From: an uncultured Solirubrobacteraceae bacterium
Lineage (GTDB): Bacteria > Actinomycetota > Thermoleophilia > Solirubrobacterales > Solirubrobacteraceae
Reading direction: 5' to 3'
Assembly (NCBI GenBank): GCA_963811895.1
Contig: CAWETE010000001.1
Span: 76,160-140,159 of the forward strand
DNA: 64,000 bases
Positions 55,440 through 58,517 of this stretch are shown here, in pieces. Each line of letters opens with the position of its first letter. Positions within the stretch are counted from its first letter, which is position 1. The notes below the pieces were generated by a model that made no database searches, was not told the DNA's origin, and was given only the letters and a program-made list of their open reading frames with translations. The position numbers were made by a program, and so were the translations under genes.

Positions 55440-58400
55440 GTGAGCCCTCGTCCGGAGATGATCGGACGATGGCGAGCACGAGACAAGCACCGAAGACAGC
55501 TGACCGAGCAGATCACGGACGAGGGCTTCGTCGAGGGCGACCTCCAGGAGCTGCGACTGGCGCTGGTGATGTCGGGCGGTGTGAGCCTCGCCGTCTGGAT
55601 GGGCGGCACGGCGCACGAGCTCAACCGGCTGCATCCGCGGCGACGAATCCCCACGTACGTCGAGCTGCTCAAGCTCACGCGCACGTTGCCGCGGATCGAC
55701 GTCATCGCGGGAACCAGCGCGGGCGGCCTGAACGGCGCGCTGCTGGCCTACGCGGTCTCGCAGGACTCGGCCGTCGAGAAGCTGCGCGGCCTGTGGCTCG
55801 AGCTCGGCGCCTTCGAGGCGCTGCTGCGCCCGCCGACCAGTCGCGAACCCGCCCTCGCTCATGCGGGGCGACGAGTACTTCCTGCCCGAGATCCGCGAGC
55901 GCGATCGTCGCGCTCGCAAACCGCCCCACGGATCCGGCCGACGTGCCGATGGAGCTGATCATCACGACCACGCTGCTGAACGCGTGGCCGCGCGGGATCC
56001 CGGACAGCTTCGGGACGATCATCCAGGACGCCGACCACCGCGGCGAGTTCACGTTCCGGCGCGGCGCCGGCGAGAGCGGCGACGACGGCGACGAGCCGCG
56101 CGACGACTTCACGGCGGGCGACATCGACTACCGGCTGGCGCTCGCCGCGCGCTGCACCGCCTCGTTCCCGATCGCCTTCGAGGCGAGCTTCGTCCCGGTC
56201 GACGGCGAGACGGACAAGCCGATGCGGCCGGACATGAAGCAGCACGCGAACTTCGGCATGAGCCGCTGGGTGATCGACGGCGGCGTGCTCGCCAACCAGC
56301 CGCTGCGGCCCGCGCTGCGGGCGATCTTCCGCCAGCCCGCGAGCCGTCAGGTGCGGCGCGTCCTGGCCTTCGTCGTCCCCGACCCCGGCGAGGCGGTGCA
56401 GGTCGCGGCCGACGAGGACGCCGACGGTCCCGGAGCTGAGCGACGTCGGCATGGCGAGCATGATCCGCCTGCCGCGCAACCAGTCGATCAGCGCCGAGCT
56501 GGACGAGCTGACGCGCGCACAACGCGAGGGTCGACGCGCAGCGGCGCCAGCGCGAGCTGATGGTCATGCGGCTCGAGCCCGACGGGCTCGCCGACGCCGG
56601 CTACGACGCAGTACCGCGGCGATCCGCGCCGAGGAGCTCGCCCGCTGGCTGTTCGACCTGCTCGCGCGCGGCTTCTCGGCGCTCGAGCTGAGGAGAGCGT
56701 CGACCCGAGTTCGTCCGCGAGGCGCCGCTGCGCGAGCGCGCGCGCCTGCGCGAGCAGCTCGTCGCGCACCTCGAGCGCCCTGCCGCCCGACGACTTCCCG
56801 AACACGTGCGACGGACCGCCGGAGCGTGGTTCACCACGCGCGACACCGCCGAGCGCGCCGCCGGGGTCGTGCTCGACCTGTTGCGGCGCGGTCTCGCCGC
56901 GATCGAGCCCGGATCGACGGAGGCCTCGCAGGCAGCGCACGCGTGCAGATCCGGAAGATCCGCGCCGACGAGTCTCGGGGCAGCTGCTCGCCGCCCAGCG
57001 GCTGCGCAAGCCGCATGCACGAAGGAGCGCGGACAGCGGCGCGCGCCCGGGCAGGCCGTGAAGCCGCGATGGCGAGGGCGGAGCGCTCGCGAGTGGGCCA
57101 ACGGGGCGCTGCCCGAGGTCCTCGGCGACCCGGCGAAGCTGCGCCCGATCGTGGAGGCCATCGCCGAGCAGCTGCGTGCCCGCCGCCAGAGGCGGTGCAG
57201 CGAGGCCTGCGCGCGCCGTCCGCCGCATCTGGCGCCCGCTGGCCGGCAAGGCCGCGGCGTACGCCCGAGGCTCGTCCGCGACGGCGGCCGGAGCCCGCAA
57301 GCGACGCCGCTGCGCCGGCTGCTCGCCCTCGAGGTCGCCCAGCTCGCCCTGGGCGGCGCAGCCGACCATGGAGCAGCGCGTCGACCTGATCCAGGTCAGC
57401 GCGGACGCCGGCAACGGGCTCGACACGCGCGACCGCGCCGAGCAGAAGGTCGCCGGCCTCCAGCTCGCGCACTTCGGCGCGTTCTACAAGCGCTCGTGGC
57501 GGGCGAACGACTGGATGTGGGGCCGTCACGACGCCGTCCAGCGCCTCGTGCAGGTCCTGCTCGATCCCGCGCGGCTGCGCCAGCTCGGCATGGGCTCCGT
57601 CGAGCACGTTGCCGGAGGTCGAGCGGATCGCCTTCGACGGGCTCGAGCGAGGCCGACGAGAAGTTCCTGCGCGCAGGCGAAGCCGCGGCCGTGGGACCCG
57701 AAGAAGGCGGTGGAGGAGCTCAGCGTTCCTCGAAGACCCGAAGCCCTGACGCCGCCGGCCACGCTGCCGATGTGCGCGCAGGCCATCGCGCGGCGGCTCC
57801 AGTTCGGGGTCCTCCAGGAGGAGCTGCGCCATGTCAGCGACGGCGATCGGCTGGGACGAGGACGACGGCGCCGACCATGACCGACGGCGGCCCGCTGCTT
57901 CCGCGACGAGTTCAACGGCAGCGCCCGAATCCGCTGACCGCCGAGAAGGCGGTCGAGCTGTTCAAGGCCTGCAAGATCGGCAAGGAGAAGATCGGAGGCG
58001 AGACGGCGTCCGACCTGCTCGCCCGCACCGCCACCCGGACCCTCGCGGTGACCACCGCGGCCATCAGCGGCGAGAGCTCGGGGCTGCCGGGCCCGATCCG
58101 CAAACCGCTCCAGACCGTCCGCGGCCTCGCCCTGATGATCTACCTGTTCGTCGGCACGCGCTGTCGCGCCAGCGGGCGGGCTCGCTGATCGCCACCGCTG
58201 CCCTGGCCGCCGGCGCCGCGCTCGTGGGCGTCGGCCTGCTCGTGCAGATTCCCGGGATCCTCATGGTCATCGGTCTCGGGCTGCTGCTCGGCGCCGTCGC
58301 CCTCGCCCTGCTGCGCGGCAAGCTCAAGCGCTTGATCGGCGCCCTGGTGATCGGCTTCGCGATCGGGATCGCGCCGCGCGTGGTCGATTGGATCACCGAC

Positions 58401-58517
58401 GACCAGGGCGTCGAGGACTTCATCGCGCGCATCGAGCCGCTCGTCGTCGTGCTCGGCCTGCTCGTCGCCGCCTACCTGCTGGGCCGGATGAGCGTCGAGT
58501 GGCCGGAGACGCGGTAG
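55440..58517 (+). pseudogene. Patatin-like phospholipase with DUF3376-type C-terminal region and C-terminal TM helices, shredded by more than ten 1-nt indels
   Basis: Recognisable pieces in alternating frames: LRLALVMSGGVSLAVWMGGTAHELNRL...IAGTSAGGLNGALLAYA (patatin G-x-S-x-G), MRGDEYFLPEIRER, ...MELIITTTLLNAWPRGIPDSFGTIIQDADHRGEFTFRR...YRLALAARCTASFPIAFEASFVPVDG...MSRWVIDGGVLANQPLRPALRAIF..., ...LSDVGMASMIRLPRNQSISAELDELTRAQREG..., ...IRAEELARWLFDLLARGFSALELR..., ...MEQRVDLIQVSADAGNGLDTRDRAEQKVAGLQLAHFGAFYKRSWRANDWMWGRHDAVQRLVQVLLDPARL..., and final TM region ...LIATAALAAGAALVGVGLLVQIPGILMVIGLGLLLGAVALALL...LVVVLGLLVAAYLLGRMSVEWPETR*. Confidence 0.65.

Follow-up and report, generated by a model that had tools for sequence, protein, structure and literature searches.

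A strain-variable patatin/DUF3376 gene with multiple frame changes best explained as consensus errors of assembly

The patatin/DUF3376 gene and its neighbours

In the 64,000-nucleotide stretch of DNA analysed here (the window), positions 55469 to 58517 of the plus strand hold a patatin-like phospholipase/DUF3376 gene of the TIGR03607 family, as delimited by profile scores and by frameshift-aware protein-to-DNA alignment of its closest intact orthologue, P0098 (1,004 aa), to positions 55400-58530. We relied on orthologue-guided alignments because a GC3-periodicity HMM, used by itself over the window, did not tell frameshifts apart from gene boundaries. With its frame corrected, the gene yields a product of about 1,003 aa; as assembled, it consists of about 18-32 frame-consistent blocks. 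Pfam Patatin is matched in two ORFs that lie in different frames (55440-55958 and 55469-56560), and DUF3376 in a third ORF (57176-57880); without correction, the two fragments reach 48.5 and 24 bits against the Patatin profile, the second falling below the cutoff of 27.7. The corrected protein matches the full Patatin profile (PF01734, 1-191 of 191) with 66.6 bits against the same cutoff, DUF3376 (PF11856) at residues 606-694 with 90.9 bits against a cutoff of 25, and TIGR03607 at residues 27-694 (model 1-732 of 732) with 464.9 bits against the NCBIfam curated cutoff of 262.45. The assembled sequence does not hold the TIGR03607 member as one uninterrupted ORF, as 17-31 frame changes are required to read it; we judged these to be assembly error, a fault of the record rather than of the bacterium's own gene.

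The patatin domain begins with the glycine-rich oxyanion-hole position G-G-V-S (55575-55586, plus strand, within LVMSGGVSLAVWMGG), followed by the G-T-S-A-G nucleophile elbow (GxSxG) containing the catalytic Ser at 55710-55724 (plus strand), inside the Pfam match, and by the D-G-G motif at 56276-56284 (plus strand, in the context VIDGGVLANQP), which supplies the Asp of the catalytic Ser-Asp dyad and lies where the match reaches its C-terminal end. All three are kept in P0098 and in the related contigs L086 and L091, to which the G-G-V-S position was aligned. The conserved DUF3376 core, which contains AHFGAFYKRSWRANDWMWGRHDAV, lies approximately at 57320-57600 (plus strand, PF11856). A C-terminal hydrophobic region at 58155-58514 (plus strand) runs in a single unbroken frame up to the stop codon (TAG, 58515-58517) and is 81% identical to residues 879-997 of P0098; its composition suggests a transmembrane character. 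Thus, the patatin/DUF3376 identity and the motifs named in an earlier note on this DNA were confirmed, with profile matches above their cutoffs. On the other hand, the gene had been read from position 55440, and translation most probably begins at ATG 55469 (MAST...), as in P0098, L086 and L091, rather than at GTG 55440. As far as its sequence indicates, the product is most likely a patatin-like lipid hydrolase that uses a Ser-Asp dyad, is anchored in the membrane and has DUF3376 as its middle region.

The corrected product has the domain order of the TIGR03607 family (Patatin PF01734 followed by DUF3376 PF11856; actinobacterial and Acidimicrobiia proteins of 1,000-1,200 aa), with an N-terminal patatin domain carrying GxSxG and DGG, a DUF3376 core and a hydrophobic C-terminus, and it differs from the family in not being a single ORF as assembled. 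We found no TIGR03607 member with an experimentally defined function. The patatin Ser-Asp motifs are also common to the CapV-type phospholipase effectors of CBASS, but the window gene has a different and much larger architecture and adjoins no cyclase or other CBASS partner. Membership of a defence system was considered and rejected, PADLOC giving motif-level matches only (E ~2e-3, 15 bits). A search of genome contigs returned a 48%-identical Iamiaceae locus as the sole match, and the best relatives in a metagenome search were at most 56% identical.

Upstream of the patatin gene is a class-V aminotransferase (54104-55426, plus strand, 440-aa ORF) that has no frameshift and is identical to its L091 orthologue at 433 of 437 residues, and downstream is an intact dodecin ORF (58531-58740, plus strand). 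Dodecin is a conserved partner of the patatin gene in L091, in L004 and in the contig of P0098, where, as in the window, it lies downstream of the patatin gene. The neighbours had been described as intact, which is true of these two but not of the next genes out, as the ALO/FAD oxidase and the TPP enzyme each carry one frameshift (at about 53602-53609 and 60145, respectively).

Frame changes in the window and in related contigs

In the alignment of P0098 to the window, 992-995 residues are matched with 75-77% identity and no in-frame stop occurs, although 2.4% of the possible substitutions would create one. The number of frame changes depended on the penalty, being 17 at a penalty of 30, 18 at 20, 24 at 15, 27 at 12 and 31 at 10, with extra paired shifts appearing at the lower penalties. 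The claim of at least ten frame changes was therefore borne out, and as a count it was too low. Eighteen robust changes span 55839-58153 on the plus strand (at about 55839, 55900, 56417, 56514, 56608, 56691, 56773, 56813, 56902, 57017, 57355, 57599, 57645, 57676, 57836, 57879, 57908 and 58153), their density peaks at 56.4-57.4 kb, and the frameshift sites have no sequence motif in common.

The most direct comparison is with the conspecific contig L089, which has 10 mismatches to the window over 2,500 nt of the left flank (0.4% divergence). At 30 of the 31 frameshift sites found with a penalty of 10, the window and L089 differ by an indel, in almost every case because the window has an additional base, so that the disabling changes are not common to the two conspecifics. 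The gene (3,049 nt) has 49 window-specific insertions whose length is not a multiple of three, compared with 4 over 7,464 nt of flanking sequence, a 30-fold higher rate (binomial p = 3.5e-22) that upholds the view of the gene as an indel hot-spot; gaps of this kind in the opposite direction number 20 inside the gene. L089 has 17-20 frameshifts of its own, at positions other than those of the window, and the nucleotide differences between the two are spread evenly over the codon positions (90/100/128). Insertions far outnumber deletions in the window gene, and 29 of its 40 single-base insertions relative to L089 lie outside homopolymers as isolated bases, which rules out homopolymer error as the explanation.

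The same insertion-dominated signature is found elsewhere in the dataset. It recurs in the hot-spot of the M14 gene and throughout sister contigs of the same ENA series, housekeeping genes included, where orthologues of proteins that are intact in the window are broken into fragments; one sister contig has an intact patatin gene. L088, for example, has 17 single-base insertions and 1 deletion over 10 kb relative to the intact L091, again with housekeeping genes among those hit. The patatin gene is intact in L091 (1,040 aa), P0098 and P0139, and it carries 4 frameshifts in L092, 9 in L088 and 20 in L097, which are 98.9-93.6% identical to L091. Two short-read-style contigs from relatives, the short JGI contig L086 and the MEGAHIT-named L087, have one frameshift each in the patatin gene, and these count against a reading of all frame changes as pure artefact.

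Variability of the patatin locus

The locus itself is variable, as near-conspecific genomes have either a 62%-identical allele or no patatin gene. Between the window and L091 the patatin proteins are 62% identical, whereas ALO, aminotransferase, cyclase, TPP and EamA are 98-99% identical. In L090, L093, L094 and L096 the segment corresponding to 55407-58512 (unstranded; from blastn coordinates and junction sequences) is absent, a presence/absence polymorphism with GCCG(G)AG microhomology at the junction. This deletion lineage is somewhat more distant (flanks about 89% identical in nucleotides), and the removal of the gene is precise, leaving the final patatin codons and stop fused to the aminotransferase. 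L095 has part of the gene only, and some relatives have two diverged patatin/DUF3376 copies. Since related lineages have truly deleted the gene, it is dispensable.

The two alleles can occur together, as sample ERZ25039541 has a contig with allele A and another with allele B. When the window consensus was examined for contamination by allele-B reads, window-specific bases matched L091 at 46 sites, and the opposite comparison gave 52. Variability of this pattern is typical of conflict genes in phage defence and interbacterial antagonism. The 62% alleles between 98-99% flanks, the precise deletion, the two copies and the constant pairing with dodecin led us to speculate that the hot-spot may mark a locus under diversifying or balancing selection and that TIGR03607 proteins may act on membranes as effectors of a conflict system not yet described, an idea that we regard as unlikely.

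Origin of the frame changes

Several properties of the corrected gene bear on whether it has decayed. Its GC content by codon position is 0.746/0.497/0.946, as in intact neighbours. Over residues 1-585 the window has 24 unique amino-acid changes, L003 has 23 and the nearly intact L086 has 19, hence no lineage-specific excess. Omega between the window and L003 is 0.40 overall (range 0.32-0.56), a weakly informative value that is inflated by leftover wrong-frame stretches in both sequences. With zero stops, 24 against 19 changes and a GC3 of 0.946, no sign of relaxed selection was found. The check proposed earlier, to distinguish true decay from homopolymer errors, thus went against both, as there are no in-frame stops or substitution excess to indicate decay and the insertions are mostly outside homopolymers.

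We conclude, with a probability of about 0.88, that the frame changes stem from errors in the assembled consensus, at a strain-variable gene that is intact in the organism. The frameshifts are private to the assembly, their spectrum is error-like and recurs elsewhere in the dataset, conserved genes included, and the locus is polymorphic. The organism, a Solirubrobacteraceae-like soil actinobacterium of 72% GC, would carry the gene as an unbroken ORF of about 1,005 codons, and the roughly 20-30 frame changes would be mainly spurious single-base insertions in a consensus built from too few or mixed reads. Reads of co-occurring strains would support the flanks well and the window allele poorly or ambiguously, and we propose that the errors pile up in the patatin gene because this locus is strain-variable; heterogeneity or low coverage would then have produced the hot-spot. 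The contigs bear Flye-style names, and therefore the data are probably Nanopore reads processed with Flye and Medaka. Indel errors have been documented in Nanopore MAGs made with Flye and Medaka (PMC12313526), indels are introduced where alleles have been collapsed (PMC8445201), and gene-fragmenting indel errors are reported for long-read (Nanopore/PacBio) assemblies and MAGs (PMC12007338, PMC8445201, PMC12313526). The window gene resembles such cases in its single-base indels, in false frameshifts without stops or decay, in differences between assemblies of the same organism and in their concentration at a polymorphic locus. It departs from them in that its errors are mostly non-homopolymer insertions, while homopolymer deletions are usually stressed for Nanopore. 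Insertion-dominated errors outside homopolymers are not the textbook Nanopore profile.

The alternative raised by the earlier note is that the gene has been selectively inactivated, that is, a genuine recent pseudogene, disabled by about 20-30 frameshift mutations and heading for the complete loss that relatives have undergone. The clean deletion in four relatives and the partial gene in L095, which mark the gene as dispensable, and the intact aminotransferase and dodecin on either side are in favour of this. The window gene also resembles the true multi-frameshift pseudogenes of reductive genomes, such as those of the Mycobacterium leprae type, in being a long gene that is readable by repeated frame changes next to some intact neighbours. 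It differs from them in having no stops, an unchanged GC3, no excess of substitutions and no frameshifts common to a conspecific, and its indels are biased to insertions, mainly of single bases outside repeats, where decay of this kind is biased to deletions. Natural decay of bacterial genes is deletion-biased, with more substitutions than indels. As L089 lacks 30 of the 31 frameshifts at 0.4% flank divergence, and as housekeeping genes of sister contigs have the same signature, we consider a pseudogene of this kind very improbable. It is somewhat less improbable, yet still unlikely, that most frame changes are errors and that one or a few are real and leave the gene inactive in this strain. 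A single genuine inactivating change could go unnoticed among the errors, relatives can do without the gene, the short-read-style L086 and L087 have a single frameshift each, and about four positions may be common to the window and L089 (residues 12, 60/61, 312/314 and 877/878); however, L089 is in frame at residue 12 by eye, so that the apparent sharing reflects where the alignment places the shift, and no site is distinguishable from the error class.

About nine frameshift positions of the window recur in L003, and at some of them the two have the same inserted bases (GACG CAG TAC CGCG). These count against the consensus-error reading and are not fully explained by it. Inheritance was ruled out for them because L086, with its one frameshift, is closer to L003 (0.851 nucleotide identity) than the window is (0.817), and they are not common to the conspecific L089. 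The recurrence of some positions in a different lineage, together with a coding signal kept across all frames, would also suit real frameshifts tolerated through recoding (multiple programmed +1 shifts or editing) or generated by locus-targeted hypermutation. We give this hardly any credence, as the sites have no common motif and differ in L089, and the closer relatives L086, P0098 and L091 have intact single-frame orthologues; moreover, tens of recoding sites within a single gene are not known from any bacterial system.

Taken together, the assembly-private frameshifts missing in L089, the lack of stops and the kept codon bias mean that selective inactivation of the lipolytic gene does not hold, and there is no evidence for it in the M14 peptidase gene of this bacterium either. 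The earlier note had offered as a fallback that such regions, if artefactual, flag poor assembly quality, and it was this part of its reading, with the gene identity, that stood, given the same signature in sister contigs, housekeeping genes and the M14 gene. Most of the contig is accurate, but it has local stretches of about 1-2% indel error, and gene calls, pseudogene counts and inferences of gene loss will be wrong at such spots in this assembly and its sister contigs. The variability of the locus may account for the failure of the consensus at exactly the patatin gene, and the deeply diverged alleles and presence/absence between near-identical flanks may merit a separate study.

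Reading and identity of the disrupted patatin/DUF3376 gene

The window has a GC content of about 72% along its entire length, and the interval between the aminotransferase gene (54104-55426) and the dodecin gene (58531-58740) has no long ORF; instead, each of the three plus frames contributes ORFs that overlap one another. Pfam matches to Patatin fall in two separate reading frames, and the DUF3376 match lies in a further ORF (57176-57880). Many homologues with both Patatin and DUF3376 are intact at 1,000-1,200 aa; the nearest, P0098 (1,004 aa), likewise has a 69-aa dodecin encoded downstream on its contig. 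The earlier note had claimed at least 10 frame switches in this gene and had proposed a frameshift-aware alignment with a check for in-frame stops. When P0098 was aligned to positions 55400-58530 of the window using a custom frameshift-aware protein-to-DNA aligner, 992-995 residues were aligned at 75-77% identity without any in-frame stop, and the frame changes needed numbered 17 at a penalty of 30, 18 at 20, 24 at 15, 27 at 12 and 31 at 10. Because strict penalty settings leave Arg-rich wrong-frame stretches, the higher counts are closer to the truth, and the claim of at least 10 switches was correct and, if anything, understated.

The corrected product of 1,003 aa covered the entire Patatin model, matched DUF3376, and scored 464.9 bits against TIGR03607 (cutoff 262.45). 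The catalytic motifs GTSAG (55710-55724) and DGG (56276-56284) are both found in the gene, which likely starts at ATG 55469 rather than GTG 55440. Judged by its predicted product, the gene genuinely belongs to the TIGR03607 patatin/DUF3376 family.

Frameshifts in the conspecific locus, sister contigs and neighboring genes

With the exact dodecin protein as anchor, ten loci in synteny with the window were collected from ENA assemblies ERZ25039xxx; their contigs all have Flye-style 'contig_N' names. The conspecific locus L089 differs from the window by 10 mismatches in 2,500 nt of the left flank. Within the patatin gene, the window has 49 specific insertions of lengths other than multiples of three relative to L089, with 20 such gaps the opposite way. 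The remaining 7.46 kb of aligned sequence has only 4 such window insertions, so that they are enriched 30-fold in the gene (p = 3.5e-22). Thirty of the 31 frameshift sites in the window are indels relative to L089, with the additional base almost always on the window side; 40 of the window insertions are single-base, and 29 of these 40 lie outside any homopolymer. The L089 gene is itself broken by 17-20 frameshifts, located elsewhere in the sequence. The nucleotide differences that separate the two contigs fall evenly on the three codon positions (90/100/128), which is the pattern of noise, not of selected divergence.

Among the sister contigs, L091 has an intact patatin gene (1,040 aa) with intact neighbors; L092, with 98.9% amino acid identity to L091, has 4 frameshifts in the gene, L088 has 9 and L097 has 20. 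Relative to L091, the L088 sequence has 17 single-base insertions and one deletion over 10 kb, distributed across all genes, and proteins of 607 aa and 1,267 aa that are whole in the window occur in the sister contigs as pieces of 144-377 aa. The error signature is dataset-wide. In two short contigs from other projects, L086 (JGI Ga0533587_0407231) and L087 (MEGAHIT k141_1286728), the orthologous patatin gene reads with a single frameshift, at ~957 (residue ~249) and ~633 (residue ~207), respectively, which may be real or an error.

The aminotransferase and dodecin genes had been described as intact in the earlier note, and this holds; the cyclase and EamA genes also have no frameshift in the window. 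Two other neighbors have one frameshift each. In the ALO/FAD-linked oxidase gene (52727-54066, plus strand), the frameshift at ~53602-53609 reflects a C at 53602 that is missing in the window and present in L089 ('agtacac[C]gggccct'), and the orthologue is intact (446 aa) in L088, L089 and L091. In the TPP-dependent enzyme gene (59509-61135, minus strand), a frameshift at ~60145 (~60131-60166) divides TPP_enzyme_N/M from the C-terminal TPP_enzyme part; L091 and L092 have an intact orthologue (541 aa), and the gene is broken also in L003 and L089.

The M14 carboxypeptidase gene (32700-34514, plus strand) has six frame changes relative to the intact 593-aa orthologue in L098, at ~33085, 33396, 33476, 33528, 33949 and 34163, with 95% identity (565/593) and no stops. 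It has the same window-specific insertion signature as the patatin gene, and there are hardly any indels in the 20 kb around it.

Gene decay versus sequence error

With a probability of nearly 0.9, we place the patatin disruption in the sequence record and not in the organism. Selective inactivation, as proposed in the earlier note, would make the gene a fully real pseudogene, which is unlikely given that its indels are private relative to L089. Frame-corrected codons have GC1/2/3 of 0.746/0.497/0.946, indistinguishable from the intact neighbors (GC3 ~0.95) that formed the training set of the frame model, and the ~1,000 corrected codons contain no stop, although one would arise from 2.4% of the single substitutions possible there. 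We estimate that drift long enough for ~30 indels should leave many tens of extra substitutions. These are absent: in residues 1-585 of a set comprising the window, L003, L086 and P0098, unshared amino acid changes number 24 in the window, 23 in L003 and 19 in L086, a JGI contig with one frameshift only in the gene. We regard recoding or hypermutation as very unlikely. Somewhat less improbable, but still doubtful, is that one or a few real lesions are concealed among the errors. The alternative offered in the same note, an assembly artefact, agrees with the occurrence of the insertion signature in sister contigs and in the M14 gene.

The window and L003, whose patatin genes share ~82% nucleotide identity, have ~9 frameshift positions in common, some with identical inserted bases. 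Inheritance of these frameshifts was ruled out, since the near-intact L086 is closer to L003 than the window is (0.851 and 0.817 nucleotide identity, respectively) and the conspecific L089 does not have them. They must thus have arisen repeatedly, which suggests a technical cause.

Variability of the patatin locus and the indel hot-spots

The window and L091 have 97-98% nucleotide identity across 17-37 kb, and five flanking proteins are 98-99% identical (ALO 439/445, aminotransferase 433/437, cyclase 245/249, TPP 533/541, EamA 273/277), against 62% for the patatin protein (2882-6004 in L091, 55469-58517 in the window), which indicates a deep allelic dimorphism between the two genomes. Window positions 55407-58512 are wholly missing from four related contigs (L090, L093, L094 and L096), in which the aminotransferase gene runs into the final codons of the patatin gene and its stop. 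The junction (near 5975-5990) has GCCG(G)AG microhomology, and the loss is precise; this is a real deletion. L095 retains the gene only in part, and L004 has two diverged inverted copies. The locus is truly variable among relatives, and this patatin-dodecin variability is itself a lead of modest weight. In L004 (ERZ25039536 contig_108030), the patatin 3' part and dodecin occur twice, at 40-2779 (plus strand) and 7175-4175 (minus strand), inverted around TatA/TatC fragments and with 82.6% and 74.8% nucleotide identity to the window; the two may be true paralogues, or the contig may be a fold-back or chimera.

Sample ERZ25039541 contains both a contig with the window-type allele (L003) and one with the L091-type allele (L092). 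Co-occurring strains with near-identical flanks and different or absent patatin alleles would leave the allele of the window with less, or mixed, read support than its flanks, and we infer that such heterogeneity may have caused the hot-spot. When the window consensus was checked for bases of the L091-type allele, 46 sites matched, against 52 in the reverse direction. Mis-aligned reads in collapsed allelic variants introduce indel errors (PMC8445201), and Nanopore-only Flye assemblies retain residual indel errors after one Medaka round (PMC12313526). About 0.6 kb upstream of the M14 hot-spot, the window has a comparatively AT-rich 48-nt filler (32074-32122) where L098 has ~1.08 kb (14958-16034) comprising the abhydrolase 3' end, all of NfeD and the 5' part of Band_7. 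The filler, which may stem from a real deletion or from a mis-join, yields an in-frame abhydrolase-Band_7 fusion ORF (31103-32704). Thus, the second hot-spot also adjoins a structural difference between near-conspecific genomes.

Window positions 51717-52727, an abhydrolase-type gene found in L088-L092, and 43585-45131 have no counterpart in the syntenic L003, which joins 51717 straight to 52727; both segments seem to add to the differences in gene content among relatives.
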